Positions 9,661 to 60,335 of a stretch of DNA of 64,000 nucleotides are shown piece after piece. Each line of letters starts with the position of its first letter. Position 1 is the first letter of the stretch. Below the pieces are notes generated by a model. The model was not told the DNA's origin and did no database searches. It was given only the letters and a program-made list of their open reading frames with translations. The position numbers and the translations under genes are program-made. The DNA comes from Syntrophorhabdaceae bacterium (GTDB taxonomy: Bacteria; Desulfobacterota; Syntrophorhabdia; Syntrophorhabdales; Syntrophorhabdaceae). The DNA lies in the NCBI GenBank assembly GCA_963666485.2, contig CAXXUO010000009.1, positions 433,517-497,516 on the forward strand. The letters are read 5' to 3'.

Positions 9661-9687
9661 AATCACCTCGATGCACGAATATGACCG

Positions 9688-33399: not shown

Positions 33400-36300
33400 T
33401 TATAGCATTTTCTTTATTCTTTCCAGGAAAATTGTTTTAGCTGTATCGGATAATCCCTGAAATTTGGCTACGAGACCGTCCACTTCAAGCTCGTCAAGTC
33501 GTTTATCACACGAAGCTGCAGCCGCATGCACTTTCTTGAGATCTTCTTCGCTGAGGAAAGCAGGGGGGTTTTGCAATTTTACACGGATTTGGTTCACGCT
33601 TACCGCGTCAAGAGTGGAAATGGCCGAGGCTCCCGGCACTGAAGTGTCAATCCACCTGATAGATTGTTCTTTCCGCTGTATTTTGCACGAATCTAAAAGT
33701 TTTTCATAAGTCTCTTCTATATCCCACGGTGGTTCTTCTTCATCGAAAGCATCCTTGGCTTTGGATAAACAATTCGTGAATATATCTAGCTGTTGTTCGT
33801 CGGTAATTTGGAGAGAACCGAATTCATGGAAATGATCTATCATCATTCGCAAATAGCTATCAATGGTCTTAAAGTCCTCAAGATCTTTGTCTTGACCCTC
33901 ATAAAGATCTCGTAATATTCCAACCTCTCGCAAAATATCACTTATATCATCAATTTTCGAAATATCGCTATTCCATAATTGTTCTCCGCGTTCTTTGTCT
34001 GCATCTAATTGTTTTTGGCATTTATCTCTCAAATCGCGAATTTTTCCTGCAGCGGAATCCAATTGTGGTATCGCGCTAGATGATTTATTTGATCTTGCCG
34101 ATAGAATAGTATCCGATATACGTTTTGCGGTACTCATAATATTATGAAGATCTTTCACTTTAGTAAATTCAGATATTATTTGCGAATTGACAAAGGCATT
34201 GGCTTCATCAACAACGTATTTTATTCGCTGATTTTCATCAATATCGGACCTTATTCGATCAACATGATCTTCTAATTTTTTTCGTTCTTCCGGCAATCCA
34301 AGGGTCGTTAAATTCTGCTGAATGCGTCGCATTTTCTGTTCAAAATCACCCCAAGCTTTGAGATCTATAATAACTTCACCCTTGACCCAACTCGGAAAAA
34401 ATTGCTTGGTTGCATTTTTTGCTTTTTGAAGAAGGTTCTCAACTCGAGAGAAATCTTCGTCCAGCCAAGCATCCTCTTTGTTATTCATTCGGTCCAAAAT
34501 CCTGGCCAACTCTGCCCCGCATCTCGATATATTGCCAGCGTTTTGTTTTTGATAGGCTCTTTCCAGAAACTCATCCTGTTTTTCAATTTCGTTATCCCAA
34601 CGTTCGAGCTCATCTTGTGCGTCTTTGGAGCGATTCGCAAGCAACTCGTAGTGATGCAATCTATCGGGAGGGAGAGGTATTCGTTTTTTAAGCTCATAGG
34701 CCTTAAAAATCCAATCAAGTTGTGCGCGATATTTTTTTTCAGAATCCCACGAACTGAGGAGATCATTCCATTCATCCGTAGCCCCAGTGTCTACGGCCTT
34801 TATGGCGGTTGACTCCAAGTAATTCAGTGAAAGATAGTTGCCGGTAAAAGCTCCACTCAACCACTTATCGATAGGTATGATTTCACTACCGATCAAAAAC
34901 CATAATTTATCATGGCGAGGACAAATGAATAGACCAATGAGCATACCGGCTGAAGCTATGTTACAGCCATACGGGGGTAGGCAAAGCTCACGTGCAAAAG
35001 AACCCAGATTTACCGATATTCCCGCCTTCAACTGAGAATCAAGCGTGGCGCATATCTTAGCTACCGAACTGTTGCGAGGCTTCGTTGTTATCAAGCCATC
35101 GGAACCCAATGCTTTCCAACTATTATTTAGAACAGAAACAAGGCGATTCCTCTGCTGGGCATTGCGTGTTGCGATGTAACTTTGAGTGAGGCTACCCCTA
35201 AAAAGTTCCGTTGTGAATACTTGACAATCCTTCGCTGCGCCTCCTTTGGTTTTATGAAAGCCATCAAACGGGAAAGGGATGCAGGAAGTATATATTCCAT
35301 TAAAAAGATCGTATAGAGCGTCTCTGATTTTGATTCCGCGCTTCAGTTGCTTATTGCCGGCGAAAAATAAGCCTTCATTCTCCTGTTTCCTAAAAGTTCC
35401 CTGCAATTCTTCTAATGCATTAGGTTGCCTATCCATGATGAAATTTGTAAATCGTTTCATATCTTCATCATTGCCTTTATTGGCAAGAATCCAATGTTCT
35501 GCGATTAATTTACCGAGATTGCCATCTTTATCGTGAAGAAATGCCACTAGCAAAGGGATTTTAGTATCTTCATTGACGCCAAGCTTTTCGAGGGTTGAGT
35601 TCCATAACAGAGTGCTGTTTTCGACAACCCGAGCATAATCGCTATCAGGTCCAACATAACAATAGATGAGTTGTCCTCGGGGATCATCCGGTGTGACCGC
35701 CTCTCTCCAATTACGGATAGCATATGCAATATGGCCACCAAGCATTTGTATTGTCGAGATTGTAACTGTATATTTCCATTCGGGTGTTGTAATCTGATTC
35801 TTCATCCCGAAATCTGTTTCTACGTGATCAATGGACAGCCAATCCTTAATGTGAGTTGCGAAAAGTTCTCCTCGCTTATCAAGTGATATTTCACTGATCT
35901 TGGCTTCGAGGACATCCAGGAAAGCACGCCTAGGAAGAGCATCGCCGATGATCTCGAACTGATGAATGGAATCATTCCATTCGATCACATTATGTTCAGA
36001 TGTAAGTCTTTTTATCGTTTCTTTTATTTCTTTTGTTTGTCTTGCACTGAGCGAGCCTAGGATTGTTTCCCATTCCTGTTGTGTTTCGCCACGGCAACTT
36101 ACTTTGGACGCGAGCAATATTGCTTTAAGAACATCAACATCCTTGCTTTTGAATTCATGAGAATATTTATTTATGACGGTGCCGTAAGCATGGGCCATCG
36201 CGCCCTGCTGCCCGAATCTTTCTGAAGCTATGAATTCATTTATCATATCATCGGTGCATAACGCAGTCGCAGGAAGTGTCCAATATCCATTCGCAACTTC

Positions 36301-37653
36301 CTTGGCGCGATATTGATCTATCGCTAATGCCAATAAGTACAGCGCTGAACGGTTTTGAAGAGATTTACCTGCAGCGGACAACTTATAGAGAAACCAGGTT
36401 GCCATAGGATGCAGAGGCCAACATCCTTCCACTATTATTTTGGAAAAATGCGCTGGTTCTATCCAGAGAGGATATTTTGATGAATCCGGGAACCATTGCT
36501 TTAAATTATGCATAGTTTGATACTTCTCGGATTCGCTCACGTTTTTCTCTATATATGTTTTCAATAACTTTTCATCTTTCTTCTGTATTAAGCTTGCAAT
36601 AAGGGTTTCAAGATTTGTTGAAAGATGAACTCTTGTTGCTGAATCATAGCGTGTGACGTATCTATTGAGACCGTCACGGAACTCCGGCGCTACCCTCGAC
36701 ATATATGCTTTCAATTCATACTGGATGAAACATAATAGTGAGACTACATCGCTTTCGGCTTGTACGGCCTCGAAAAGTTGCTGCAATACTCCACTGCCCG
36801 CTACATAAGGTTTCTGGACCGCAAACTCCAAGTAGCGCCCAAATTCGTCGAATATGATGAAGATCCCTTTAAATGCCTTATCGGGGCCGCAGTAGGTCTT
36901 ACGTAAAACCGACATGAATTCTTGCAATGATTCCTGCCCGACCGATATGATTGGTGTTCCCATTTTGTCTTCAAAAATACGACTTATTTTCTCAAATACT
37001 TCTTCGTCTTGATCTAAAAGCCGTTGAAGCAAAGCTTCTTTGTTAACATCCCGACCAAAGATTTCGGAAAATTCTTTTTCTAACGATTCATAAAATGATT
37101 CAACGAAGCTCTTAGCCGACTTAAACCGCGGCCGAAGATCTTCCAAGGGTTTGACGTCGAGGTTATGCAATTTCAGGCGTAAGAAAACCTGCCGAATTAT
37201 TTCCCGTGACAAGTTAAAATCCTGCATTCCGTTAATGGCGAGAACCAGATAAGGTTGTTCGAGATTCGTCAGTATATGGGAGACAAGAGATCCGATTGAA
37301 CCATCGGCTTGTTTAATATTATCGATAATACACTTAGCCGTATCTCCGTCGGGTTCGCTCAAAAGTTCAGCAATTGTTACCCCTAAATGAGACTTGCCCG
37401 TGCCCCAACCCGAGATCGCGAGCGTAAAGGGGTCGGACGAATTATCCTCTCCCGTTATTCTTGTGAGGATGTCTCTGACAAAAGTAGCTGTATCTATGTC
37501 GGATTCGCCTGCACCATGATAGTCAGGCCCGTGGAAAACAAAATGTTCGGCTGCCTTTTTGCTTTGGGAAGGATCAGTTTCAAACCAACTTATCTGGACC
37601 GCTCCTTGAAAAAGACGGTCTTTACGGAAAGTAATTAAATCGGCAAGTTTCAT
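33400..37653 (-). CDS. Large SspC/BrxC-like P-loop ATPase (second copy) with helical C-terminal extension
   Basis: SGWGTGKS, IIFDEFGRYLE, WPLHP, LQNRS, PPYG parallel the motifs of CDS 50797-54213. Confidence 0.7.
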   Translation of the reverse strand: MKLADLITFRKDRLFQGAVQISWFETDPSQSKKAAEHFVFHGPDYHGAGESDIDTATFVRDILTRITGEDNSSDPFTLAISGWGTGKSHLGVTIAELLSEPDGDTAKCIIDNIKQADGSIGSLVSHILTNLEQPYLVLAINGMQDFNLSREIIRQVFLRLKLHNLDVKPLEDLRPRFKSAKSFVESFYESLEKEFSEIFGRDVNKEALLQRLLDQDEEVFEKISRIFEDKMGTPIISVGQESLQEFMSVLRKTYCGPDKAFKGIFIIFDEFGRYLEFAVQKPYVAGSGVLQQLFEAVQAESDVVSLLCFIQYELKAYMSRVAPEFRDGLNRYVTRYDSATRVHLSTNLETLIASLIQKKDEKLLKTYIEKNVSESEKYQTMHNLKQWFPDSSKYPLWIEPAHFSKIIVEGCWPLHPMATWFLYKLSAAGKSLQNRSALYLLALAIDQYRAKEVANGYWTLPATALCTDDMINEFIASERFGQQGAMAHAYGTVINKYSHEFKSKDVDVLKAILLASKVSCRGETQQEWETILGSLSARQTKEIKETIKRLTSEHNVIEWNDSIHQFEIIGDALPRRAFLDVLEAKISEISLDKRGELFATHIKDWLSIDHVETDFGMKNQITTPEWKYTVTISTIQMLGGHIAYAIRNWREAVTPDDPRGQLIYCYVGPDSDYARVVENSTLLWNSTLEKLGVNEDTKIPLLVAFLHDKDGNLGKLIAEHWILANKGNDEDMKRFTNFIMDRQPNALEELQGTFRKQENEGLFFAGNKQLKRGIKIRDALYDLFNGIYTSCIPFPFDGFHKTKGGAAKDCQVFTTELFRGSLTQSYIATRNAQQRNRLVSVLNNSWKALGSDGLITTKPRNSSVAKICATLDSQLKAGISVNLGSFARELCLPPYGCNIASAGMLIGLFICPRHDKLWFLIGSEIIPIDKWLSGAFTGNYLSLNYLESTAIKAVDTGATDEWNDLLSSWDSEKKYRAQLDWIFKAYELKKRIPLPPDRLHHYELLANRSKDAQDELERWDNEIEKQDEFLERAYQKQNAGNISRCGAELARILDRMNNKEDAWLDEDFSRVENLLQKAKNATKQFFPSWVKGEVIIDLKAWGDFEQKMRRIQQNLTTLGLPEERKKLEDHVDRIRSDIDENQRIKYVVDEANAFVNSQIISEFTKVKDLHNIMSTAKRISDTILSARSNKSSSAIPQLDSAAGKIRDLRDKCQKQLDADKERGEQLWNSDISKIDDISDILREVGILRDLYEGQDKDLEDFKTIDSYLRMMIDHFHEFGSLQITDEQQLDIFTNCLSKAKDAFDEEEPPWDIEETYEKLLDSCKIQRKEQSIRWIDTSVPGASAISTLDAVSVNQIRVKLQNPPAFLSEEDLKKVHAAAASCDKRLDELEVDGLVAKFQGLSDTAKTIFLERIKKML

Positions 37654-37672
37654 TGAATCCTCTTATTAATAC

Positions 37673-38488
37673 CTATTTGTAAATTTGAGACCAAACTTCT
37701 GAAGATGGTTGTAATTTGTGAATGATCCATGGACGCATCTGCCTGTCTATCCTGACCGAGTTGGTCTCTTCAATGAGATTGAGAATGGCGTCTGTATCCG
37801 ATTGAACCCAGGAAGCGGCGTCGAACATTCCGCTAACTGAATTAAGGTCGTATGCAGTAACCTGTATTTGACCGGGAAATTCATCTTCGATGATCTGTAA
37901 AATATAAGCTGCGTAAACTCTTGCGTAATTCCTGGCAATTGGCGCCTTACCGCTAACAACCTGCTTTTCCAGTTTTTTCAAAGGATCTATTTTGCCTAAT
38001 GCAACATCGTCATGATAAGTTCTTATTAAAGGACCAATCCGATTCCTACCGGGTCCAAAAATGTTCTTGAGATAGTCCTCAAGCTTGGTCACCGTGAAGG
38101 AAGCACCCAATATATCTCTGCCCCTGACAAATGTCTCATACCATGCCGCTGCACCATGCGAAGGATGACATAAACTGAGGTGCGCGATCCACTGGGTTAC
38201 CGGTTGACTCAGCAAAGCATCTTCAAGCAACACAATTCGACCAAAATTCGTTAGAACAGGATGTCTGATACCGTTCTTGGATTTCAAATCATACTGGATT
38301 AAGCCCATTCCCCTAGCATAATCTATGATTGCCGGCACCTTGCCATTTGATTTTCCCATCGGGATCCCGGTGGCACCGGCTATGTCATGGTAGCTTCCTG
38401 ACAAACCGTTTCCCGCATACTGAAGCAAGCTATTAAGCAGTCGTCTTTCCGGAATAAAAGTTCTATGAAAGTTAATTGGCAATGACAT
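37673..38488 (-). CDS. DUF4007/SspB-like winged-helix protein (second copy)
   Basis: FHRTF..GIPMGK..YARGMGL..LTNFG..D.LL....TQWIAH.L parallels the DUF4007 motifs of CDS 54221-55171. Confidence 0.6.
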   Translation of the reverse strand: MSLPINFHRTFIPERRLLNSLLQYAGNGLSGSYHDIAGATGIPMGKSNGKVPAIIDYARGMGLIQYDLKSKNGIRHPVLTNFGRIVLLEDALLSQPVTQWIAHLSLCHPSHGAAAWYETFVRGRDILGASFTVTKLEDYLKNIFGPGRNRIGPLIRTYHDDVALGKIDPLKKLEKQVVSGKAPIARNYARVYAAYILQIIEDEFPGQIQVTAYDLNSVSGMFDAASWVQSDTDAILNLIEETNSVRIDRQMRPWIIHKLQPSSEVWSQIYK

Positions 38489-41400
38489 TTAGGTCGCACT
38501 CTCCTTACCAATATCTTTGAAACGTGATCTTAAAGATTCGATCTTGATGTGAAATGCTTTCGTCTCGAGCCCCTGCTGAGTGTTCAGCGAAGGTCCTAGG
38601 GAATAACATTCTCCTTTTTTAAGCCTGGAAAGACGTTGTATCCATATTTCAGCTTTTTCATTCGTGGTGTTTTCCAATATTTGGGCATAACTTCGCAATT
38701 CGGTATCCGCGGGCTTAAAGAATAATTTATGACTCGCTTGAAATAATCTGTCTTGTTCATCTTTTTTAAGATTGCTTAGAGTCTGCGTTGCCACAATGAG
38801 GGAGATCCCGAATTTTCTTCCCTCCGTTAGAAATTTACCGAGAGGACTTTCAAGGTCATGATCCAGGTTTTGAATTTCATCGAGTATTATGATCCTGGGT
38901 CTGTCTTTATTGCCCTTACCACGATAATACCAGTATAGATCGATAAGGGTGAATTCCGTGATCAACTTCGATGCATCCTTTAGAAAACCTGCCAGTTGAA
39001 GGATATGACAGCGGGAATTTTGATCCATAAACAAGGTCTCCCAATTATCGCCTTCCTCAGCGCCAAACGGATTCATATCGACAAAAGGCTGGATCTTGCT
39101 TACGACCGTCAAAGAAGATGGATTTTCGTCAACCATTTCTTTGAGTTCTTCGATCAATAAAGGCAAGGTCATTTCATTTCCGTGCGTTTCTATTCCTCTC
39201 TTTATGGCCGTGTAGAGGGCCGATTTTTGCTGGTCGCCAAATTCGTAAACTTCGGAAAAAACCCCGCTAACCCTCTGTGCCGTATTAGACGGGTCTTCCG
39301 GAAGAAGCATTTCGCCGATCATGTCTTCCTGCCGCCTGAAAGGATTTATGGGTAATGGATCCTTTCGTACAATATGTTGAACAGGTTTCAACATCTTTCT
39401 TGTCTCAGTTTCCAGCTGATTGTCATAAAATCCGTTGGTATAGTCCACTATTAAAGAATTTTGGCCGGCCCGACCGAGTTCACATAATAAGGCTTGGATC
39501 GCATACGTCTTTCCCATCCCGGACGTGCCAAATATGAGTATATGCCTGTTCGCTAAGTCCTGGTGACCGAATTCCCAGAACACTTGTCTATTGCCTTGAG
39601 CGCCTTGGCCCAGAAAGATCCTCTGGGGCAATTTCGGCTCAATTGTGCCGCGATACTCGGGTTCGCTAACGTCCGGTTTCTTGTCTGAGATTGATGTCTG
39701 TGAATCGTTGTCCGAAGCACTGCCCGTCTCACCTCCCGGTGCTTGTTGTTTCTCTTCGTTGATTTCTATCGAAGGTTTTATTTCTTTTTCTAGCGTAATA
39801 CTTGAATAATCAAGGCTTTGTTCACCCAAAGGCAAATAGGTATCAAGGTTGTTCAGGCATAGAGATTTTACGAATTGACGGCCGGCGGATATCACCCCTG
39901 CCATCAGAGTGTTTTCGCCTACTTGAAACTCCCAATCGGCGACCCTGGCTATGTTCGATTGATCGGAGTCAGTCCAAAAGGTAACCGCCGCCGCCTTCCA
40001 TTGAATCGTAAAAAAACCATCGCTCAGCCTCTCAAGGGCATTAATAGCATCTTTAAACTGCGGATACTTCACTCGTCCCTTGCTCGCTATCAGGCGTTGG
40101 AGCTGCAGCCACCAATATCGCTGATCGGGCCTGTCATCAATTCCCTCATTCTTACCTTGACGAGGTTTGAAGCAATCTACCAAATGGCTCAGACCACTCT
40201 GAAGCTGTTCTCGGGCCTTTTCAAGATGCGTCTCAGATTCCTGGGCGAGTTTGCACTCGAACAGTTGCGATTCGATCCGGAACTGCCCATCTATTATTGT
40301 GGCCTTCAAACGCAATAGATCTGGTCTGTTATTATTTGGTGACGAATCAAACCAATGCCGAAAGGCATCGAGAGAGACAATCTCGTCACAGAAAGCATCG
40401 GCATCCCTTGGAAGCAATTTTCGCAACAAAGCGTACGAGATATAATCTCTGACGTATTGCGACGGCCCCGTGGCCTTAACGAGGGACAAACCCGCCATAT
40501 GCAGAGATTCGCTGATGATGCTTGATGCCATATTGTTGCTTGCCTCGTGATCCAAAGGCCCCAGTTTCGACGCTATGTGCGACGCAATCTTAGACCGGAC
40601 TTGTGCGATCCTGAAGAAATCCGTCGATATGGTATAGTTATGCTCGCCATGGCTACCGACGCCAGACCCAAATCCGATAATTTCTCTTTGCCGGATACCA
40701 TTATGATCTTCTTTTCCTATTAGCCTTTCATCTACGGATGGGTCGATACACACTACCCAGGTGCTTCTTTCGTGCAGTTTGTCGACCAGTCTTTTCCAAG
40801 GTGCAAAATCGCCTTTTCCCATTACTATGTAATCCTTCTCTGCAACATGCGTCGGCAGCTTCAAGCGTGCCATTACTTGAGAATGCAGGGTGCCTAAGAC
40901 AAATTGGCGATTGCTGATAATCCTTTCGCGTACCCAATCCATACCGCCGCCTACCACTGAGCAACAGGCTTTTTCTAAGACGGGGAACATTCGGAATTTT
41001 CCGCTTGCGTCATACGGCTCAATCTCTTCAAACTTATTTCCCCCCGCCCCTGCACGGACAAAATGGACCAAGAAGGATAGATCAACATTAATTTGGGAGA
41101 TCAGGTTTTCGAACAATGTATGGTCTTTCTGCTGGGTAATGAGGCGGTGAGCAACTGAGATCTTACACCAACTGTAGTAGTCATACTTTGCCGAATACTC
41201 TGCACCAATCCACCTTTCACGCCAAGCACTAACCCATTTTGTCATTGCGGTGTCATCCTGAGTTTCGGCAAAGAGGATGAGCGAAAGAGTGTAAGGTCTA
41301 TCGCCGCTCCTAATTTTTGCCAGTTCGCGCAAATAGGCATCTATACCTGCTATAACAGGTTGGACAGGCCCCCCGCAGTAGGCACTTATGGATAGGCCAT

Positions 41401-43774: not shown

Positions 43775-43775
43775 A

Positions 43776-45413: not shown

Positions 45414-48400
45414 TAGTTGGTTACCTCCAAAATGCCTTCATTTATATTGAAACTCTGGCTCTTGAACTGATGGTTTAATTGCAACCGAACGAGCATCATG
45501 TCGCCCCTGTTTTTATCCGTCGTACTCTCCAAGAGCGCTAATTTGAACTTTTCCAATCGATCAATATAGAACGTTTTTAATTGTTGGGCTATTTCTCCCT
45601 GATGCCTGCTATGAACGTAGTCGAGAAACGGTAGATCGAGATCAATACTGCAGTCCTTTCTGGAGAAAAGGGGTCGATATTGTATTATTCCGATCCGCAA
45701 ATCGACCGGTTCTAAGTATAGTTGAAATTCATCAGCGGAAATTTTGGTGAGCACGATCTGGGCAGTCTGTCTGATATCGTAATTCCTACGATTCAGTGTA
45801 ATAAACAGCGTTTCCTGGTCTCCCGCTGTTTCCGGGAGCCGCAAACCGGTAAAATGCTCTTGAAGGATATGGATTATGCCCCTTCGTAATCGCCGCAGTT
45901 CTAATTGCGATCGTATTTTACCGGTTTTCTGCCATTCCACATATGTTTCCAGTAAGGGCGAATCGAGAAATGTTGATAAGAAATGCTTTCCCAACTCAGC
46001 GTCTTGAAAGGCCCCATGAAAGTAAATCAAGCGCCGGACCTGCAACCGTGCCAAGGATGGCTGCAATTTATCATTCTTCGTCCCCCTGCCCGCATTCCGG
46101 AGGTACAGATAGATCTCCTCCAATGTCGTATTGGCAAAGGATACCGGTTGGGAAGATTCTTCGATCCAGAGCATTCGATCTAAACCTGGATTGGGCCTCG
46201 ATCCCGATTCCAACGTACGCGCAAACCTTACGGCATTTATTTGGTTCGAGGTGATATCCTCTTCATCGCCGGAGTCTCCAAAAAACCTGTTAAAGAAGAG
46301 GTAATGCCGCAACGGGGGCCGTAGCGCAAGGGAAGATATCTCTTGTATGGAATAATAATCCAGGCCGGCCGTGATCGCATACGCCAGGTGTTCCGTCATC
46401 TGTCGGATCGTTAAACGATAACCGTATTCATAGAGCCTTCGGTAAAATAACTCAATTCCCTTGAGCGCGGCTGATTTGCTTGCGCACAACATTCTTACGT
46501 TCGCATAAATAGGGCATTTATCCCTGCATTCCAGGTTATCGCACTTCTGCCAGCGTTCTTCGGCGAGCATCTTTTCGAACACCTTGATCGTCGTATCAAT
46601 ACTGTCAACCCGGCCAATATTGATTATGTGAAAACTTTTTTCGCGGCATGTTATGTCTTTCGGCTCCACGCTGTCGAGGGCGCCGAGTAGATCGCTCTGT
46701 AGCGTAAACCACTCAGTCCTGTCTCTGGCAAGACCTTCGAATGCATTGAGCAGACTACCCGTATTGGAAACTATTAAATAGCGTTGATCGTCTGAACAGG
46801 CTTTTTCAAGGAGATCGTGGCGGTCTTGTTCGGTGAGTTCGCTCATATCCTTAATCAGGGTGACGCTAACGCCTTTGTATCGAACCATCTCCTTAGCCTT
46901 CATGTCAGAAGCAAGTGGTTGATCAAAGGGTATTCCGTTGAATCGTTTAAAGATCTCAAGGCAGATAGTCGATTTTCCATCACCCGCGTTTCCTGTAAGG
47001 ATCACGTGAGAACCATTCTGATCGGTAAGGCGATCAAATATGTAATCGGTAACTGGCAAGGGGACATGGATATGACAGAAGTTTGGATTTCTGGCTTGAG
47101 ATTCAGCGAGGGCATTTTCATTGGCTCCTGAAGCATTATGAAGCGAATTGAGATACGCCACGAATGGATTGCCAAGTTCGTCAGGCCGAGGTAGCGATAC
47201 TACAGGCTCCGGCGGTGGAACTTTTTCGGGCTCAATAAACACCAGGTTAAGGTCAGTAGAAGCTTCCTGCTCGTCCGTCGCCGATGATTCCTGGACCGCT
47301 TCCATGAGCTCTCTCTGCATCCACTCGACATTTTGAAAGCGTTCTTCCGCAGTCGTCGATATCGCCTTAAGCATCCAACTCCTTAAGGCATCCGGAACAT
47401 CATCGCGGATATCCTCAATATTTTGAAAACCCTCGGTTAGTATTTCGGAGGGATGGATACCATAGAGCCATTCAAAAAGAGTCACTCCTAAGGCATATAG
47501 GTCGCCATTTTCCGAAAACTTGATATCTCCACCCCGTAACAGATCGGGAGCAATATATTGTGCAGTTCCCTGAAACTGGTCAATACGAGGCGGTCCGGCT
47601 ATTCCAAAATCGATGAGCACGGCACTCCCGTCTTGTGTAACGATAATATTGTCCGGTTTGATGTCACAATGAAGGAGCGGGCTTGCTTTGCCGTCGATCT
47701 TTCGTTCGTGGAGGGCATATAGGCCCTGCAGCAATGATGAAGCTACCTGTTTGAATTCATTAATGTCAGGTCTTTCCTGACATTTGATAAAGTCTCTCAT
47801 GACCCGCCCGTCTATGTAATTGAGTTCGAGAAAAAAACGTTCTTTCTTCCAATGACCTATTCTTTTTGCATGGACAAGGTAGGGCGAATAGACTGCGCTA
47901 GTGACAGTTTCTTCATTTTGGATTCTCACGAGGGGAATATCATTGTTAAAAACTTTTAGGGCAACAAGGATCATTACCAACGGTCCTTGCCAAATACACC
48001 TGAGATACGGGCCCCTCTGCAAGCAGCCCGCTCGATGGTAAAAACATCGTATTCCTCTCCCAGGTCAAACTTCCGGTTTGGATCTCTTTCTTCAAGCCCA
48101 ACCTGATTTTTCGGCTTCAAACCAAGCGCTTCTCGTGTCTTTTCGGCATTTTGGATCCGCTCGTTTCGATCAAGGATGACTAGGCTTTCTAAGACTTCAA
48201 GAATCTCTGTTGAAATATCCCTTTCCTTAAGCTTTTGCAGGGCGGCTTCCGTCATTCGGCCGTTTGTTATTTCAAGCTCCGTCGAAATCTTGAATGGCAA
48301 GCTATGGGTAAGTAGTTCAAAAAGGACTACTCCTACGCTGAACAGGTCGGTACGTTCGTCTATATCGCTGCCGTGGTATACCTCGGGCGCAGTATAAGCA

Positions 48401-49990
48401 TCCCGTTTAAGTTTCATTAGATCCGGTATAACGGTTACATGTTCGCCAATTTCTAATTGATAGGCTAGGTCGAAATTCATGAGTTTTGGCCTTCCGTTGG
48501 CCATGAGTATATTTTCTGGCTTGATCGCCCTGTGAATAATGTCCGCCTTGTGGACAACTGTTAAGGCATCAAGTAATTCCTGGCAAATTCCGAGGGCATC
48601 TTCAATGGGAAGAGGGCCCTCAAGGTCATTGAGCAGGTCCCTTAACGTTCCCTGCTCCGACCAATCGGAGCCTTCTATGATAAGACCGGTCTCGTCCGGT
48701 ACGGGCCAGACCTTGAGTATATTGGGGTAATCACCAATCTTGGCAATTGCGTCCAAGGTATTTCTGGCGCGTGCTTAAAAAGCGTTCTTTCTCATGGACA
48801 TTGCTTCCTTGAGGAGGAAGAAAGACCCGAAATCTTTGCGACCTGCGAATCTTGCCTTCCTTGGGTCGTACCACATACTCGACGAGATCCGGGCGTTCAG
48901 TCAGCCGCTCGATTATTTCAAATCCTGGGAATACATGCCCTTTTTCTCTTTTACTGTGCTGCAGGGACTCAAGGTAATGGCCGACCCGCTCTATTTTTAG
49001 ATGATCTAACTTTTCTTCTTTTGCCCTTCGTTGGTGCTTTAAAAAATCGATAAAAGTATCAATCGAACCGAACGAAGGGCAATGCTTTTCCGTTTTCGAA
49101 GGCGAAGCACCTTCAACTTCTGCTTCAGGATTGGTTAAGACAACAACCGATTCAACCCATATATCAGGGAAAGTTCGGAACTGATGCTGGTAAATTCCCT
49201 TGAGGATTTTTGCCTTAAAGAGATTTGCGCGATGGGGATCCTGTCGATAGACAACATCATCTTTAATCCAGTTGTAAGGGGCAATCCGAATTTTCCCTGA
49301 CCAATGCTTTAGCTCAACAAGATAAATACCCTGCGGGGAAATTATTATGAGATCACATTCGTAATAATCGTTCGTTTGGTTATCGTAAATCAGAAGGTTT
49401 GAAATAATATGACCAAGAGCATAACGTTTTACCTCAGACCCAATTGCTTCGAGAGCGATATTTTCATGCCAGAATATGCTTTTGCTTTCAGTGTCTTTCT
49501 CTGCTTTTTCTAAGGATTTAAGCTGTATCTGTATCTGTGTTGCGAAGAGTGTTCTAATTTCAGCATTTCTCAGCAATTCATACAACTCGTCGTCTAGGTA
49601 CGCGTATTCAATTGTTTCGAGTATTCTGTTTTTAGTAAACCGATAATGAACAACCTTCGAATCTCGATATTTTTGATAAAGCGTCTCCGCTTCACTCTTA
49701 ACTTTATGATGCCAAAAACCATCAGAGGTGAGATGATAATAGGGATATTCCAGCAGACCTAGATCGCTATCAATGATGTCTTTGTACTTATTCCAAGTAA
49801 AATCGAATAATGGCTCAATTTCTACAAATGAAAAGTTATTCTTATGATCGACGTCTTTTTCCAAGAGCTCAATTATGGATAAAATTAAAACTAACTTATG
49901 TGGTCTAGCGACGTCTCCTTTTTTCCAGGTTCTCAAAGAATGAAGTTTTTCTAAGTATTTCTGCGCGACAATTTTCTGCTGATCATTCAT
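45413..49990 (-). CDS. SspF/DndF-like multidomain protein: SBD-NERD-pseudokinase-kinase-P-loop (three +1 frameshifts)
   Basis: Joins ORFs 48731-50062, 47974-48756 and 45413-48022; PHKLVL/YPYYHL, ECDL..VELKHWSG, HRAIKPEN, HCDIKPDN..DFG, TGNAGDGKST. Confidence 0.78.
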
Positions 49991-50810
49991 TTGCTTTGGC
50001 CTCTTTACTCTTGGTTCTACATTGATATGTGCCATGTAAATTGTTAGAACACAAAATATCAATCAACTTCTTTTTTTCGTGGAAATCGCGGGGCATATCA
50101 TCTTGAGACTTATCCGTGTCCTTTAAGTCTCTTAAAAATTTGGGCTTACCTTTCTCTCCCGTCCTCCATGTATATACTCGACAATCTGAATGTTTTTCCT
50201 CATACTGGCAAGCCTTTTCAAACAAATCAGGATGATGTCTTCGAAGCCCAATCCAATCCTTTTCGCTTTGATAAAAGCAAAAAAAACAGCCGGATCTTTT
50301 TCTCCACGAATAATACCCGGGCATTCCCAATCCTGCTGTTCGTAAAATATTTTCGACGTCGGAGAGAATTATCCCGTCATCAACAAACGGATGGCGCGGG
50401 ATAATATTGGGAATGGTCGGTTTATAACCTTCACGTTTTTCGTCTGCACGCAATGCTACATAACTGTAGACTTTTTTGTCGCCAACATAGGCTTCGAAGG
50501 GCTCTAATTTCAATAATCTAGTGCACCATCTATTTTGTGGTGAAGGAAGTACGCCTTTAAAATATTTAAGCCAGTAATCGAAGTTTCTACGCGGCTTTAG
50601 TACATTGATATCTACATTTAGAACCGCTCGAATCCTATTTAAATACTTATAGGTCTCAGGAAGCTCACAACCACTATCCGTGAATACATATTCCATTTGT
50701 AGTTTCGGATATTTTTCCTTCATATAAATTGCAAGAGCAGCGCTATCTTTGCCCCCTGAAAGCGCTAGAATATGATGCTCGTGTTGGTTGGAACAGTTAT
50801 TTATGTTCAT
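49983..50810 (-). CDS. PAPS-reductase family protein (SspD/BrxP-like)
   Basis: LSGGKDS, DSGCELPETY, RWCTRLLK, RSGCFFCFYQ. Confidence 0.88.
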   Translation of the reverse strand: MNINNCSNQHEHHILALSGGKDSAALAIYMKEKYPKLQMEYVFTDSGCELPETYKYLNRIRAVLNVDINVLKPRRNFDYWLKYFKGVLPSPQNRWCTRLLKLEPFEAYVGDKKVYSYVALRADEKREGYKPTIPNIIPRHPFVDDGIILSDVENILRTAGLGMPGYYSWRKRSGCFFCFYQSEKDWIGLRRHHPDLFEKACQYEEKHSDCRVYTWRTGEKGKPKFLRDLKDTDKSQDDMPRDFHEKKKLIDILCSNNLHGTYQCRTKSKEAKANE

Positions 50811-53800
50811 CCCGACCCCTCACTATCCTCTCTGCAAGAACCACAAATAACGCCTCCAATTCCCGTTTCGATAGATCGTTCAATCGATGGGCTGTTTTCG
50901 TTGCAGTCCCCTGGTCCGCAGGCTTCATAACGATTTTAAGTATGTGACCGTCAGGTGCCATGACACCTACCACCTTTGAGCCGGGGTCAGCTACAATGCC
51001 GCGTGAAATCATTCCTTCCAGGTAATGTATCTTGTCCGCATAATCGTGCATGGCTACTTCAAAATAACCGATATCATTGTCCCCCCAGCTATCCAGAGGA
51101 TTCTTCATTACGATCCCGGCGATACCCTCAAGCCATTGATCTGCCTTTTTGTATTCTCTAAGCATTGCCGACAAAACTTGTTTGAGGTCCACGTCTCGGC
51201 AGGCAGAAAGTAAAGGCTTCGCGCGCTTCCGCAGGGCATGCCGCAGGCCTTCGATGTCTCCATCGAAAGAGAACGCTTTCTTGACTATCTGTTCGACATT
51301 ATCGGATAATTTCTGGTAAGCTTCATTGAGTTCGAGAAGAGAATTTCCCAATTTTTTTTGAAGATCGGATTTCCAGTTCACGGGAACATGTTCAGCGTGT
51401 GGTTCATCGTTGTCAATACCGATCGCGCGCGGTATATCGGCAAAAAGCAGCTGCAAGGGATCCGTAGCATTTGCAATGGCAGTCCGGACTAATTGAGCTT
51501 CCTTGGATACAGTGCGCGTAAAAAGAGAATATTTCGGCAAACCATCAATGAATCTTACCAATGGCGTAACAATGCTCAGTAATGTAGCGTTCCTCGCGTC
51601 ATTTGCCGTATCGTCATTCTCCGTTTTCAAGACGGCATTATATGCGTCGAAAAGCTCTCGATGTATGCCTTGATTCTTAAATCGTTTGACCGTGAAAATA
51701 TCGGGCCTTTTAAGCAGCAGGGCTATTTCTGTTTCGTCGATAAAAGGGATATAGGTTCCGTCACGGAAAAGTGCTATTTCATCCGCATTTACTAATAGAA
51801 AAAAAACAATGTAGAGCGGGACCGGGCCCTCGCGTAATCCAAACGGAGGACCTTTCAATACCGCAAGTATCTCTTCGATTTTAATGCCATCAAGGCTATC
51901 AGCTGTTATCATAGACGAGATCTTTTCCCAGAGGGGGAAAAGATCGGAGGTCTTATCAGGTGCTCTGAACTGCCATACTCCGCGTTTAACTTCTTTATGA
52001 AATCCATTAGCTAAGAACAGCGACCTATATATGGCCACTTCCGGTCCAAAACCCTCCATTGCAAGGGCTGGCTTTTGTTGGCCCGCCAGCATCGCTTCTG
52101 CAAGTTCTCTTCGCGCCATTGCGGCAGACCCGGAAAGCCGGTCCTGGTTAATCATCTCCATTTTAATATTTGGACATTGCGAATACCAAATATCGCACAG
52201 GTCCGACATAATACCCGAGAGCTCCCGGTAAGATCCTAGAGATCTTTTTGCTCCATTAACGAACCATTGAATTTTGGTAGAACCCGGATGAAATAAGCGA
52301 CTTACAAAAAGCCTGAGCTGCGTTTCCGAAGCGTGTACTCTATAGCGGGCTTCTTTTCTCGCAACACCGTCCCGTTGAAGCTCTGCTGCTTCGTTCAGGA
52401 CGGCTAGAGCGGCAGCGTGCTCAATGGCCAGCTCTTTGATCTGGTTTTCGTAGGGTACATAAGCAACGATCAAGGGTCTATTATCGGAACAAGAAGGTGG
52501 GATCTCCAATCTCCCCTTATCATGACCATAGCTATAGATCAAGAGCCCATCATATCCTTCTTTGGCACTAAGTTGTTGTTTATGGATGTCCGGGAGCGCC
52601 GTCCATCGAGCTTCGAATTTTCGCACCGTTCCCGTCACATAGGAATGACGGGAAGCTATTACGGGGTCAAGGGGAGCTATCCACTGCAATATGTCTTCAA
52701 GCGGTCTTGCAGCCAGAGCAGCTTTCTTTTCCCGAACGGCTCCGAGAATATCAAAATCCGATCCTTCCCAAAGCCTATATTCCTTCGCATATTCCCGATA
52801 AAGTAATTTCCCCCTGTCAGCCAGGTGATTCAATTCAGCCTCAAATTCACCGTGTCGCCCGCGGGTCTCGCCTAACGCTATACTGAGTACCTGCTTTCTA
52901 GCGGCCAACCCTAAAGGTTGACCAATAAGGTTAAGGATGCCTACCGTTTTTAAGATCTTTTGGCTTAACGGGGAATCGAGGTTAGAACCTTCGATGATTT
53001 CGTGAATCTCTATCCATCTTTGAGATTCCGCCCTTTCGATAAAGGATGTAGTAACGGCTGAAAAAAAGTAATGGTACAGAAAGTCAAGTCCTAGCTCTGG
53101 GAGGCGTTGAGAGTTGCTCACCCAATTGGTCTCAAGAAAAGATGATAGAGAATACGGATCCTTTCCATATATGAACGAAAAAAGCGTCCTGTCATTTTGG
53201 GCAAATTTTCGGCACAATTCAGGCAAAGCAATAACAACGAAAGGGTGGAGGGGATAAAGATCAGCTATAATTTCTTCGTTAATTGCTTGACCCGCCGGAA
53301 GCTGAAGCTTGCTAAGGGCCACATGGTAACGTCTCGCCCAGGACTTTATAGCATTGCTCAGCGCGGGGTTAGTCTTCTGCGAAAGACAAGATCTCAGTAG
53401 AGATATCATCTCAGGTGCGGATTCGAGAAATAGAACATCCTCGAAACGACCTTGTATCTTGCTCCATTCGAGGCGCTGCTGAGTGGTAAGCCCTGAAGCG
53501 TATTCCTGAAAAGCCTGGTGAAGGCAGACGCAAAGGTAAGTCCCCTTCATCTCTGAGAGGACCTGCAACATATATATGTCGCCTTGGTCGGGATACTGTG
53601 CTAGATATTCCAGGTTTTTACCAAATTCGTCCAACACAACCAAAAGCGGCAATTGGAGCCGATCGCGAACCGAAGCGAACAACCTGGCTACGGCAGTTGT
53701 CTCTGGGACCGCCTTTTTTTCAAGTAATTTTACTTCTTTTATGATCTGTGACAAAAGCTTGGAATTGTCCTCGTCCACCACTCGGCTGATCACAGCTCGA

Positions 53801-54213
53801 TGTAAACCCCGGACCAAGGAACGGTTCAAGGGTTCGTATGAAGCTGTCACTGGAACACGGAAAAATCCGTTTCCATTTTTTAACGACCCAATTCCTTCCA
53901 AAAAAGAAGCGCTTAAAGCAGGGTCTTTCTGGGCAAGTTTCTTCCGTGCCAATGCTGTAGCAGGTTCCTTTTCATTGCCGCACAATGCCAGAAGGAAATT
54001 AGCAAAAGACGATTTACCCATCCCATAAGGGCCGGTGAGAGACCAAGACGAAATCCTGCGGCCCCCGAGGGCAGACACAAAGCGAGCTATAGTTTCTGTA
54101 GCCTTTGTAGTCAACCGATACTGCTCTAAACTGGAAATATGATTTTGATCCCTTTCTAAATTAACCGATCGGGCAAGATTTACGTTTGGGAAAACAAAGT
54201 CTGAAAGCAACAT
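50797..54213 (-). CDS. SspC/BrxC-like P-loop ATPase
   Basis: RSVNLERD, TGPYGMGKSS, DEFGKNLE, EWSKIQGRF, YPLHP, AQNDRTLFSF, PPFGL. Confidence 0.8.
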   Translation of the reverse strand: MLLSDFVFPNVNLARSVNLERDQNHISSLEQYRLTTKATETIARFVSALGGRRISSWSLTGPYGMGKSSFANFLLALCGNEKEPATALARKKLAQKDPALSASFLEGIGSLKNGNGFFRVPVTASYEPLNRSLVRGLHRAVISRVVDEDNSKLLSQIIKEVKLLEKKAVPETTAVARLFASVRDRLQLPLLVVLDEFGKNLEYLAQYPDQGDIYMLQVLSEMKGTYLCVCLHQAFQEYASGLTTQQRLEWSKIQGRFEDVLFLESAPEMISLLRSCLSQKTNPALSNAIKSWARRYHVALSKLQLPAGQAINEEIIADLYPLHPFVVIALPELCRKFAQNDRTLFSFIYGKDPYSLSSFLETNWVSNSQRLPELGLDFLYHYFFSAVTTSFIERAESQRWIEIHEIIEGSNLDSPLSQKILKTVGILNLIGQPLGLAARKQVLSIALGETRGRHGEFEAELNHLADRGKLLYREYAKEYRLWEGSDFDILGAVREKKAALAARPLEDILQWIAPLDPVIASRHSYVTGTVRKFEARWTALPDIHKQQLSAKEGYDGLLIYSYGHDKGRLEIPPSCSDNRPLIVAYVPYENQIKELAIEHAAALAVLNEAAELQRDGVARKEARYRVHASETQLRLFVSRLFHPGSTKIQWFVNGAKRSLGSYRELSGIMSDLCDIWYSQCPNIKMEMINQDRLSGSAAMARRELAEAMLAGQQKPALAMEGFGPEVAIYRSLFLANGFHKEVKRGVWQFRAPDKTSDLFPLWEKISSMITADSLDGIKIEEILAVLKGPPFGLREGPVPLYIVFFLLVNADEIALFRDGTYIPFIDETEIALLLKRPDIFTVKRFKNQGIHRELFDAYNAVLKTENDDTANDARNATLLSIVTPLVRFIDGLPKYSLFTRTVSKEAQLVRTAIANATDPLQLLFADIPRAIGIDNDEPHAEHVPVNWKSDLQKKLGNSLLELNEAYQKLSDNVEQIVKKAFSFDGDIEGLRHALRKRAKPLLSACRDVDLKQVLSAMLREYKKADQWLEGIAGIVMKNPLDSWGDNDIGYFEVAMHDYADKIHYLEGMISRGIVADPGSKVVGVMAPDGHILKIVMKPADQGTATKTAHRLNDLSKRELEALFVVLAERIVRGRDEHK

Positions 54214-54220
54214 GATTGCC

Positions 54221-55171
54221 TCACCTCGATGAAGAGCCATAATGAACTTCAAGTAACTGCCAGTATAATTCTCGCGCGTCTCGTGTAAACTGAAGTTGTT
54301 GGTAACCCATAGATTCCACGAAATCTATATCTTCATGTGATCGAGCTGCCTGATCGAGATACCTTCCAGCCTCCGTTTCGGAGACCTTAAATGCGACACC
54401 CGGCGAATTATAATCAAAACAGATGCGGTGAAGGGATAAGGTCCTCTGAGTCTCCGCTTGCGCATTCTGCGCATAAGACAAGCAGGCCGCTGCAAAAATA
54501 TCTTCGGGAAGAGTCTGCTTTTCCCCGATCTCGAATCGAAAACTATTAGCTTCTTCCGCTTTTCTCATAATTCCCAACATGCTAAACGGGCTCTCGATCC
54601 CGAAAGCAGTATTATCTGATGCAGGAACATACATCCTGATTATACACGAGCCATCTTTTTCAAAAGAGCTCTGAGACAGTTTACGGAGTTTCTCATAGTT
54701 CTGCGTGGCAGCAATCAGGGCGTTACTCAAGTGCTTCGGCTCAAAATACGGAAGAAGCACATGGTTAAAACACACCGGCCATGACGCCGCATGAAAAGGA
54801 GGAATGAAAAGCTGCCAATGAAGCAGCCAGAGGCTCGCGACGTCCTCAAGGAACGGATCCCAACCATCGTCATCCAGAAGCTTATCTCCCAATCGGGTAG
54901 GCCGCAAACCTCCCTGTTGCCCCTTTTGCTCTTGCCCGCTTAAGTATTCGAGTAAATGAAAAGCAAGGCACCAAAAGCGGATAGAACGGACCATATTCTT
55001 ACCAACCCCAAGCCGTTCAATTGCATCGGGTGCATTGAAAACAAAAGGGTCTTTCTTGGCCTCATCATAGCCCTTTTTAAGCCAGCCATACCTTGGGGTA
55101 AATGTCTCATGTCCCCCGACCCTGCCAATATCAACCTGTTCTCTTATGTTAGCATCCGTATTCATTAACAA
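54221..55171 (-). CDS. DUF4007 family protein (SspB-like)
   Basis: GHETFTPRYGWLKKG, LGVGKNMVRSIRFW, DPFLED..SLWLLHWQL. Confidence 0.88.
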   Translation of the reverse strand: MLMNTDANIREQVDIGRVGGHETFTPRYGWLKKGYDEAKKDPFVFNAPDAIERLGVGKNMVRSIRFWCLAFHLLEYLSGQEQKGQQGGLRPTRLGDKLLDDDGWDPFLEDVASLWLLHWQLFIPPFHAASWPVCFNHVLLPYFEPKHLSNALIAATQNYEKLRKLSQSSFEKDGSCIIRMYVPASDNTAFGIESPFSMLGIMRKAEEANSFRFEIGEKQTLPEDIFAAACLSYAQNAQAETQRTLSLHRICFDYNSPGVAFKVSETEAGRYLDQAARSHEDIDFVESMGYQQLQFTRDARELYWQLLEVHYGSSSR

Positions 55172-55191: not shown

Positions 55192-55530
55192 TTAGAGACG
55201 CCTTTCATCCCAATATCGAATTATTGCCGCTATAGCTGGTGCATCCCGGTGAGGACATGCCCCCCAGTGACTCAACCCATAGGACTTCGTCAAGTATCGC
55301 GCCGATTGCGGCAGGGTTTTCCACCTTTCAAAAATGATCCTGATATCAATGTATTTTAAAGTGTAGGATTTTTCTTTACTGTTGACGATAGTAATCGATT
55401 TCTCTCTCTTATTATAGAGGGCCCTAAAAGGTATTTTTTGAGCCAATGTACCAAACGTTTTGGGTTCGATAAGGTTTTCCGATACCCAATTTACGAAATC
55501 GTCAAAATTAATTTCCTCTAAATCAAGCAA
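55192..55530 (-). CDS. Hypothetical protein upstream of the PT operon
   Basis: 112 aa ORF, TTG start after G-rich RBS, 20 bp before the DUF4007 gene. Confidence 0.55.
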   Translation of the reverse strand: MLDLEEINFDDFVNWVSENLIEPKTFGTLAQKIPFRALYNKREKSITIVNSKEKSYTLKYIDIRIIFERWKTLPQSARYLTKSYGLSHWGACPHRDAPAIAAIIRYWDERRL

Positions 55531-55637
55531 TGCCAGCCCCCCCCAAAATAAATCTACATTTTACTCAACGGATAACACCCCAATCAATAATACCACAGCT
55601 ATATTGACAACATCACGTCACTATACCGAAATATGAA

Positions 55638-58346: not shown

Positions 58347-58365
58347 TCTTCTATATCATTTCCTT

Positions 58366-58950
58366 TCAATCAACCTGTACTGACCAACCGCTACCGTTTC
58401 TCGTTAAATCTGACCCAGGATTGGTCTTGGCAAATGTCATCGCGTCTTCGAATACACTAAAATATACGACAGTTGGTCTTGTGGTCATCCTTGCGTCCGG
58501 CGATACTAAAATGTGCGCCTTGTCCGCAAGAACGATTTTACTAGTATATTTTGGCCCGTATAGTGGGTGTCCACATCCGCAAGCACCGCAATGATAAAGA
58601 ATCCATCCACATATATTACATTCCGCATCAATGTTTGAATCAAGGTCTAACCCACAGTTATAGCAGTGCACTTCCCGCCTCCCCTTATTCGGGTCCCGCA
58701 TTCGCACACCACAATAGGGTATATTACGTTCTTCGAGAAATTCTTTGTGATATTGGATCAATGATTCTGGACCACGGTCCAGTTTGATAAGTTGCCACGA
58801 GGCATCCGTTAAATTAAGGGTTGTTTTGCTATGTTTCGAAAATACTATGTCTACATGCCCATCTTCCGCGACATGAAGAATTCTCCCCACACCCCATTCG
58901 AGGGCTTCCGGATGCCTCACTAAATCATTTATGTTAAGATTTAGTTTCAT
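58366..58950 (-). CDS. DUF3553-like SH3 domain plus Cys-rich (Zn-finger) protein
   Basis: VRHP..EWGVGRI; CYNC..CNICGW..CGACGC. Confidence 0.65.
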   Translation of the reverse strand: MKLNLNINDLVRHPEALEWGVGRILHVAEDGHVDIVFSKHSKTTLNLTDASWQLIKLDRGPESLIQYHKEFLEERNIPYCGVRMRDPNKGRREVHCYNCGLDLDSNIDAECNICGWILYHCGACGCGHPLYGPKYTSKIVLADKAHILVSPDARMTTRPTVVYFSVFEDAMTFAKTNPGSDLTRNGSGWSVQVD

Positions 58951-60102: not shown

Positions 60103-60335
60103 ATGTCCTTTCTTGCCGTTGCCCGGGACCGCATCGGCTCTGGAAAAGTAATAGGAGACCATGGAGATGCGAAATGGGGGTGTTCTTTGATATCCGTTTT
60201 TCTCTTAAATGTCTGAAACAAATAAGACATAATGTTACCATATATGAACAAATGAGTACTATTTGTCTGGCAGAAGAACGCGATCTCTGGTGCGCGAATC
60301 ACAATATCGGACAGGATTTCTTGGGGGAAATAACC

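Follow-up and report, generated by a model that had tools for sequence, protein, structure and literature searches.

The closest described relatives of the genes considered here are the phosphorothioation (PT) systems of the Ssp and Dnd kinds. SspB, SspC and SspD together with a cysteine desulfurase give rise to single-strand PT; SspB is a nicking nuclease that is needed for PT writing and for which a role in target recognition has been reported, and the desulfurase SspA is replaceable by IscS (PMC8092258; this and the other papers named below by their PMC numbers are cited for individual passages). SspFGH damages DNA without PT and is toxic without the writer (PMC8092258), and the way in which DndFGH and SspFGH discriminate PT-marked from unmarked DNA has been called poorly understood (PMC12914056). 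Here we describe a locus of eight genes in a stretch of 64,000 nucleotides from Syntrophorhabdaceae bacterium (GCA_963666485.2, contig CAXXUO010000009.1, 433,517 to 497,516), the whole of which is referred to as the window. With a probability that we put at about 0.6, these genes encode a PT restriction-modification defence of the SspBCD-SspFGH kind, of which they represent a distinct and conserved branch with two modules. The first module is a predicted PT writer. The second is a five-gene unit in which the restriction subunits F, G and H are followed by B' and C', apparently diverged paralogues of SspB and SspC.

The eight genes and their families

All eight genes are on the minus strand within positions 33400–55171 of the window:

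sspB, 54221–55171, minus strand: DUF4007 triple winged-helix protein
sspC, 50797–54213, minus strand: large ATPase; ATG at 54213, the longest open reading frame (ORF) beginning with TTG at 54252
sspD, 49983–50810, minus strand: ATP pyrophosphatase of the PAPS-reductase fold, predicted to insert the sulfur
F, 45413–49990, minus strand: one gene of 1524 codons from ATG 49990, in three frames in the record
G, 43776–45413, minus strand: predicted DndG/SspG-type multi-winged-helix DNA-binding subunit
H, 38489–43774, minus strand: DndH/SspH-type subunit of 1761 amino acids (aa)
B', 37673–38488, minus strand: predicted diverged SspB paralogue of 271 aa
C', 33400–37653, minus strand: predicted diverged SspC paralogue of 1417 aa

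The junctions from sspB to C' are, in this order, 7, −14, −8, −1, 1, 0 and 19 nt if the start codons matching those of the homologues are used (ATG 54213 for sspC and ATG 49990 for F). A preliminary description of this DNA had given the same genes, coordinates and junctions, which were reproduced exactly, and its family assignments agree with those obtained with Pfam and PADLOC. It had, however, treated F as one open frame, whereas in the letters of the window F is spread over three ORFs; as written, the region therefore holds ten ORFs of 260–1761 aa, head to tail on the minus strand.

The first three genes are clearly sspB, sspC and sspD, and the PT writer that had been recognized in them is thereby borne out at the level of families, its activity being predicted. 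SspB matches Pfam DUF4007 with 1.6e-82, the cut-off of 27 bits being exceeded, and the PADLOC SspB model over its full length with 1.8e-94. SspC, a large ATPase of the ORC/Cdc6- or BrxC-like type, reaches 1051 bits with the PADLOC SspC model (PDLC02781) over residues 28–1110 and also matches a PADLOC BrxC model (6e-110); its Walker A (G74..G79-K80-S81) and Walker B (D208-E209) residues are invariant in 24 sequences. SspD matches the PADLOC SspD model with 2.3e-94 and Pfam PAPS_reduct with 5.3e-11 (43.3 bits; cut-off 22.5), and its translation shows the PP-loop SGGKDS. To judge from the PADLOC and NCBIfam scans of the operon proteins, which gave no DndD or DndE match and for SspD a weak cross-match to DndC (5.5e-5), the FGH genes do not stand beside a writer of the Dnd type (DndC, DndD, DndE).

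Family scans of the ORFs found no gene for a cysteine desulfurase (sspA) in the operon or in the window. A sulfur donor nevertheless appears to be available, since the genome encodes three cysteine desulfurase homologues at other places, of which two are full length with 38–39% identity, and since IscS can stand in for SspA (PMC8092258). About 20 related loci have an extra gene for 375–407 aa between D and F; the three of these genes that were checked encode class-V aminotransferases (Aminotran_5, E 1e-74 to 1e-79) and thus are sspA.

The last two genes had been described as a second B/C module, and profile comparisons uphold this. With single models the relationship is faint: B' matches Pfam DUF4007 below the cut-off (4.3e-5), C' gives a partial match to the PADLOC SspC model (1.2e-14), and sequence searches of the PDB with B' and C' yielded nothing useful. 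When an alignment of 61 B' sequences was compared by hhalign with one of 15 SspB sequences, the probability was 95% (E 3.2e-8), with alignment of a G-K motif and, at the N-terminus, of the H-x-T-F-x-P motif. The AlphaFold2 (AF2) model of B' (predicted local distance difference test, pLDDT, 94; predicted template modelling score, pTM, 0.92) has as its top three Foldseek matches the SspB structures 6lb9 and 6juf (E 7e-7 to 4e-6, TM 0.70), while the next match has a TM of 0.20. From the model, B' is predicted to be a diverged SspB paralogue with the SspB fold. It is well conserved within its own family. In a search of 1.84 billion representatives the B' profile found 145 clusters with E 1e-30 or better, the length being 270–290 aa in nearly all cases.

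For C', the comparison of 46 sequences with 24 SspC sequences gave an hhalign probability of 99.4% (E 1.1e-21) over columns 8–940 against 7–849, some 800 columns in all; the C-terminal part of C' is longer than that of SspC. The residues G82-x-G84-x-G86-K87-S88 (Walker A) and D269-E270 (Walker B) are invariant in the 46 sequences, and C' is accordingly to be regarded, as far as alignments can tell, as a diverged paralogue of SspC whose ATPase motifs are intact. The homologues of C' that were found number at least 657, are of about 1430 aa and are all named hypothetical.

Genes F, G and H had been taken for an FGH-type restriction trio, to which PADLOC indeed assigns them as SspF, SspG and DndH/SspH. 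They show the composition of SspFGH: an F with a Walker A core, a G of the SspG/DndG type and an H of about 1700 aa that ends in an FtsK/HerA ATPase. F is made up of five domains:

Domain 1, 49499–49951, minus strand: sulfur-binding domain (SBD), putative PT-DNA reader; residues 38–188 match SBDHga1 (PDB 8h0l) with 1.6e-15 (phmmer)
Domain 2, 49133–49417, minus strand: NERD nuclease domain; Pfam NERD 1.9e-15
Domain 3, 48103–48900, minus strand: pseudokinase; Pfam Pkinase 3.6e-26, with HRA for HRD and NFD for DFG
Domain 4, 47258–48060, minus strand: Ser/Thr kinase; Pfam Pkinase 1.9e-22, catalytic motifs intact
Domain 5, 45413–47170, minus strand: SspF/DndF core; P-loop with the conserved Walker A motif GxAGDGKS, plus C-terminal region

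The match of domain 1 to a solved SBD is in line with the PT reader proposed earlier. Every one of the 47 complete F proteins is matched by an SBD profile (27 of 27 in the short form, 20 of 20 in the long form), and the N-terminus of F aligns with that of the NCBIfam PT-DNA_restrict model, with 4.4e-9 below the cut-off. The long form of F, that with kinase matches, was found in 27 loci and the short form, of 753–815 aa, in 26. In the long-F alignment the E..D...ExK positions of the NERD domain are conserved to at least 90%, as are the Lys, HxDxKxxN and DFG positions of domain 4. The kinase signalling that had been suggested stands in so far as kinase domains are present; the first copy, however, is a pseudokinase, and a signalling role is conceivable. 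The core matches the PADLOC SspF model with 1.5e-40 (residues 285–616 of the third ORF against model positions 1–322 of 560).

G matches the PADLOC SspG model with 4.4e-21 in its C-terminal part only, and 51 of 51 family members match SspG models. Its AF2 model, folded with 51 relatives (pLDDT 91), matches the DndG crystal structure 7exx with a VIA-align Z of 16.9 (337 residues, root-mean-square deviation 4.9), the next match having a Z of 3.8; on this model G is predicted to have the DndG fold. H matches the PADLOC models DndH with its C-terminus (1.2e-63) and SspH with its middle part (3.1e-18), both partially, as well as Pfam DUF87 and TrwB; its C-terminus gives a profile match to DptH (7es4) with 8.2e-11. 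A PD-(D/E)xK nuclease motif at about 40250–40369 (D1136, D1152, E1173-x-K1175) and a C-terminal HerA/FtsK ATPase at about 38546–39628 (Walker A G1419-x-G-K-T, Walker B D1632-E1633) are invariant at these residues in 55 of 55 sequences. Because the nuclease motif precedes the HerA/FtsK domain and the motifs are invariant, the layout of H fits the plan of DndH, which is nuclease and then HerA/FtsK (PMC10853773, section 21).

Recurrence of the layout and co-variation of its parts

The distribution of the genes was followed in two scans. In the first, an H alignment was run against one genome per species (185,579 species), which gave 87 relatives, of which the best 80 loci were used; the presence of genes was called by tblastn, and counts are limited to loci with enough flanking sequence. 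In the second, which was anchored on B' and covered metagenome contigs, at least 438 relatives were found and again the best 80 used. The H-anchored loci are distributed over Desulfobacterota, Bacillota, Chloroflexota, Planctomycetota, Verrucomicrobiota, Bacteroidota, Cloacimonadota, Latescibacterota and others, and are mostly from metagenome-assembled genomes (MAGs) of anaerobic habitats. One of them (L041), with F, G and H, is on a contig that carries the label of a Bathyarchaeota archaeon MAG and ends inside H.

B' follows H in 72 of the 73 loci whose sequence continues for at least 900 nt past H. Where at least 5300 nt are available (62 loci), B' was found in 61 and C' in 59, the exceptions being L061, L084 and L096. 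On the other side, G and F are present in 57 of the 59 loci in which the sequence before H is at least 4000 nt long (all but L022 and L084), and SspC and SspD lie upstream in 46 of the 49 in which it is at least 9500 nt long; in two of the remaining three (L038, L067) SspC and SspD lie downstream on the other strand, and the third (L084) is rearranged. The B'-anchored scan gave the same picture, with H directly upstream of B' in 46 of the 46 loci with room for it and C' directly downstream in 57 of 57. The median junctions across the relatives are −8 nt from H to B' and +13 nt from B' to C'. Since dozens of unrelated genomes share this order of genes, the layout is more than chance. In this branch F-G-H is thus not a complete three-gene restriction half. 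The layout, which had been termed non-canonical, is a conserved type present in many phyla and no peculiarity of this genome.

Single loci depart from the rule. H and C' are interrupted in L036, about 6 kb separate B' from C' in L047 and about 1.8 kb separate H from B' in L086 and L087. F is in two pieces in L042, L047 and L051.

Among the F core, G, H, B' and C', pairwise distances are closely correlated from one protein to another (Spearman rho 0.85–0.93, permutation p 0.001, 27 de-duplicated loci), whereas each of the five is hardly correlated with SspD (rho 0.07–0.16, p 0.03–0.18, 27 loci; for B' and C' 0.11–0.16). SspC correlates with SspD with a rho of 0.80 and with the five with 0.38–0.63 (15 loci). 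It should be noted that related loci are not independent of each other, and these correlations describe a pattern and are no formal test. B' and C' also remain behind H where the writer lies elsewhere (L038, L067 and L072). Because their distances track those of F, G and H and because they stay behind H when the writer moves, B' and C' are placed in the restriction and sensing unit.

For comparison, canonical loci were sampled in 401 genomes of another phylum, in which the PADLOC SspH model matched over its full length in four genomes and partially in a fifth. These five loci hold SspB, SspC, F (610–651 codons, stop to stop) and H, and B' and C' gave in them no matches beyond weak cross-matches on SspB and SspC themselves. 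Since the H profile of the present branch finds canonical H only at E 7e-4 to 5e-6, this branch is, by profile distance, to be called distant from canonical SspFGH.

As no conserved gene was found after C' in 45 loci, the system is taken to end there. The neighbours of the operon in the window were considered as further parts of the system and rejected, no match to them being found in the 80 H-anchored loci; they are also absent after C' in a contig (L125) that is 98% alike. Since relatives have none of them next to the system, they are regarded as separate cargo of an island. Positions 33400–55171 (GC 0.42–0.48, against 0.52–0.57 in the flanks) lie inside this low-GC island (22000–60000, GC 0.37–0.48), which houses further defence-type genes. 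No tRNA occurs within the window and no border of the island was located by one. Promoter and terminator scans at both ends of the operon gave counts equal to those of shuffled sequences and are uninformative on the transcript. The genes in and around the island are:

55192–58950, minus strand, 20 nt from sspB: ORF of 112 aa, DinG-family helicase of 902 aa (PADLOC type IV CRISPR-associated DinG 1.5e-93; NCBIfam DinG below cut-off; no CRISPR or Cas genes seen) and ORF of 194 aa
32302–33369, 30 nt after C': Schlafen AlbA_2 protein; an ORF of 227 aa and a Macro gene are also downstream
29618–31333: Macro-domain protein
25505–28630: HSP70-like and Fic protein (PADLOC SoFic / PDC-S04)
24590–25138: DSP phosphatase
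60174–60923, plus strand: AbiEi antitoxin-like gene (PADLOC 1.3e-75), toxin-antitoxin cargo around the island
9059–9915, minus strand, and 20145–20878, plus strand: ParE/Phd pair and Phd/PIN pair, likewise toxin-antitoxin cargo around the island

Proposed mechanism and competing explanations

In the mechanism that we propose, host DNA would receive PT marks from SspB, SspC and SspD with sulfur from a cysteine desulfurase encoded elsewhere in the genome, and the five-gene unit F-G-H-B'-C' would inspect DNA. C' would be a DNA-scanning ATPase motor and B' a site binder, possibly a nickase, both derived from the targeting pair of the writer. The two would serve the restriction side by locating candidate sites on DNA, and we infer that scanning for restriction is their role. 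The SBD of F would report whether PT is present or absent, and DNA without the mark (foreign DNA) would undergo nicking or cleavage and pumping by H. In about half of the branch F also has NERD and kinase domains, and these could be optional extra or back-up effectors.

A more specific form of this proposal can be advanced only tentatively and is somewhat doubtful: the restriction machine would have recruited a copy of the writer's targeting pair such that B' and C' scan the sites of the writer, the SBD of F reads the mark and the complex licenses H site by site. If correct, it would provide a first concrete mechanism by which FGH-type systems discriminate PT-marked from unmarked DNA, and also a case in which a module for the targeting of modification has become a sensor for restriction. 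The branch unites three candidate parts for discrimination in one operon, a PT reader, a DNA binder with the predicted DndG fold and a duplicated SspB/SspC scanning pair, and its conservation across many bacterial phyla and in one archaeal MAG makes the question of discrimination testable. There is also a practical side: of current defence-system models, those of PADLOC 2.0 would give confident labels to six genes out of eight and overlook B' and C', the two additional obligatory ones. For annotation, names are here supplied for two families which are at present "hypothetical".

Several points weigh against reading the locus as a PT restriction-modification defence with B' and C' on the restriction side. 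PT marking, restriction of unmarked DNA and the role of B' and C' are here predictions made from genes. The PADLOC matches of F, G and H are only partial, and function is transferred over a large distance, the H profile reaching canonical SspH only at the E values given above. With a mean p-distance of 0.50, B' belongs to the best conserved proteins of the system, which is unlike a fast-changing specificity subunit. The weak co-evolution of the writer with the five-gene unit could mean that the two work independently. Both scans are of the best 80 matches and thus biased to close relatives, with related loci being non-independent. Finally, the text of the window has F in three frames, and F was covered by contigs only and by no raw reads.

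There are also other explanations. B' and C' might be a second targeting pair of the writer, which together with the single SspD and the desulfurase marks a second motif, while F, G and H alone restrict. Indeed, they appear to be true paralogues of SspB and SspC (the SspB fold is predicted and the Walker motifs are intact), B' retains the N-terminal H-x-T-F-x-P motif of the family in the hhalign comparison, and duplicated scanning pairs have been described for Dnd systems (PMC10853773, section 16). The explanation is nevertheless improbable: the distances of B' and C' follow those of F, G and H and not those of SspD, the pair is always directly after H even in the three loci in which SspB, SspC and SspD are elsewhere, no second SspD was seen in the H-anchored loci, and canonical SspBCD-SspFGH, in whose loci the pair is missing, functions without it (PMC8092258).

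We consider it just as unlikely that two independent systems merely adjoin each other, SspBCD with an epigenetic or other function and a stand-alone F-G-H-B'-C' unit for "HerA/FtsK capture" that detects invaders with sensors of its own and acts independently of the adjacent PT marks. The largely uncoupled evolutionary histories of the two blocks would fit, as would the argument that DndFGH is a stand-alone counter-invader system that is often decoupled from modification genes (PMC10853773); besides, defence genes cluster in islands, and the window contains a low-GC island with several others. Yet the five-gene unit adjoins SspC and SspD in 48 of the 49 loci with room for them (46 with the writer genes upstream, 2 with them downstream), sspD and F being only −8 nt apart here; a reader domain for PT-DNA in 47 of 47 complete F proteins would make little sense without PT marks; and in about 20 loci sspA is between D and F and therefore inside the joint operon.

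As written, F consists of the ORFs 48731–50062, 47974–48756 and 45413–48022, the first and third in one frame and the middle one in another, with single extra letters at 48775, 48027 and 47966. The first break falls in the N-lobe of the pseudokinase, the second and third in the N-lobe of domain 4. A 38.8-kb contig from run X21, which has the same organism label and may be from the source organism itself, is without the three letters and shows 0 other differences over 4.7 kb. A digester-metagenome contig (X14) that is about 96% alike, with 138 substitutions in 3.5 kb, is without the same three letters. In X23 the letter at 48027 is absent and short contigs stop at the other two sites, and in two metagenome contigs from JGI (L125 and L124) the letters at 48027 and 47966 are absent. 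Removal of all three letters gives 1524 codons from 49990 to the unchanged stop, while no subset of them opens the frame. Three genomes of the same phylum have the homologous gene in one ORF (1368, 1503 and 770 aa), F of relatives is a single ORF of 1368–1553 aa, and most of the 47 complete F genes are likewise unsplit.

The same record contains an nrfA-like cytochrome c552 gene (3517–4777, plus strand) that is split over two frames, the first ORF corresponding to Pfam Cytochrom_C552 positions 1–238 of 438 and the part with the heme motifs being in the other frame. Because nrfA is frameshifted too, the record probably carries assembly indels. Most likely, F is intact in the organism and its three breaks are indel errors of this kind. 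Programmed frameshifting and three separate genes were rejected as explanations, relatives having one ORF and the read-derived contigs being without the letters. A PAS/GAF histidine kinase-response regulator hybrid in the window (5736–8939, plus strand) ends after 80 of 111 receiver-domain positions, and its early end may be a further frame break of the record.

That the locus is instead decaying in this strain, F being a true pseudogene through three insertions and at most the writer being active, is very unlikely, even though the window as written shows three frames, a few relatives also have a split F and the toxicity of unrestrained restriction modules (PMC8092258) would provide a selective reason for the loss: the X21 contig of the same organism, identical over 4.7 kb, is without exactly these letters, extra letters are also missing from three other independent assemblies (X14, L125 and L124), the three insertions together restore the frame, and nrfA, a housekeeping-type gene, is likewise frameshifted in the record.

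Comparison with known systems

The nearest counterpart is the IscS-SspBCD-SspFGH system of Vibrio anguillarum FF-93 (PMC8092258). The two have in common SspB, SspC and SspD with a desulfurase in trans and, adjoining sspBCD, an F with a Walker A motif, a G in the middle and an H of about 1700 aa with an FtsK-like ATPase. The restriction half of the present branch, however, is of five genes, with paralogues of SspB and SspC after H; the agreement of its F, G and H with the canonical models is partial; and its F, unlike canonical F, always begins with an SBD, to which about half of the loci add a NERD and two kinase domains.

With DndFGH and DptFGH the locus shares a G with the predicted DndG fold and an H of the same length class, in which the nuclease comes before HerA/FtsK and the C-terminus matches DptH, whereas the adjoining writer is of the Ssp type (SspB, SspC and SspD) and not DndABCDE. 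The architecture of the long F is already in print, since a winged helix-turn-helix (wHTH) domain, a NERD domain as well as S/T/Y kinase domains, both inactive and active, are listed as fusions on DndF (PMC10853773, section 20; Rakesh, Aravind, Krishnan 2024). The N-terminal domain of F is referred to there as wHTH, whereas its match here is to an SBD of known structure. Main-text sections of that paper make no mention of a pair of the SspB/SspC type behind DndH, and full-text literature searches, with the supplement of PMC10853773, which possibly lists such neighbourhoods, outside their scope, found no published H-B'-C' block and no eight- or nine-gene layout identical to this one. While the F fusions were thus listed in 2024, we found no description of the H-B'-C' block beside SspBCD-SspFGH-type genes, which we regard as the new element.

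Over its NERD, pseudokinase and kinase domains, F is colinear with the models for PglW of BREX type 2 and for MAD6 of the methylation-associated defence system MADS (PMC12839542, PMC13662399). The scores of F are far below the cut-offs of the respective models, with 105.6, 146.7 and 97.8 bits for MAD6 (cut-off 460) and 39–51 bits for BREX_PglW (cut-off 990). The ATPase region of H, and only this region, matches PADLOC mad8 with 7.2e-19. Pfam MAD7 is found in 13–24% of the members of the protein-atlas clusters nearest to G, which is a lead only, and 51 of 51 members of the G family gave no PADLOC mad7 match. These sub-threshold similarities hint that MAD6-7-8 and F-G-H might be remote relatives. 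Unlike MADS, however, the locus has no methyltransferase family and no MAD3 or MAD4, and its predicted mark is PT and not methylation; unlike BREX type 2/Pgl, it has no PglX, PglY or PglZ. BREX type 4 has homologous modification genes, BrxP being an SspD-SspB fusion and BrxC an SspC homologue (PMC12914056, PMC12839542). In the locus described here SspB and SspD are separate genes and the restriction half is of the FGH type. The absence of PglZ noted in the preliminary description was confirmed with Pfam for 44 ORFs of the window, and no PglZ or BrxL match was obtained in these or, with PADLOC, in 26 ORFs.

Among the SBD proteins are also PT-dependent SBD-HNH restriction enzymes such as ScoMcrA. 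F resembles the SBD proteins (SBDHga1, 8h0l) in its N-terminus, over the residues given above. Whereas the SBD restriction enzymes stand alone and cut PT-marked DNA, the SBD of F is one domain in a multi-subunit machine, and because this machine adjoins a PT writer, its SBD is more likely to signal "self".

An analogy for B' and C' may be seen in the Dnd systems, in which duplicated DndD-DndE or CxC-ABC-DndE (PbeABCD) scanning pairs have been described (PMC10853773, section 16). In both cases the writer's scanning pair of an ATPase and a DNA-binding protein has undergone duplication, with the copy linked to nuclease genes beside the writer. The families are unrelated, however: the pairs of the Dnd systems consist of an ABC ATPase and a ribbon-helix-helix protein, the pair described here of an ORC/Cdc6-like AAA+ ATPase and a triple winged-helix protein.

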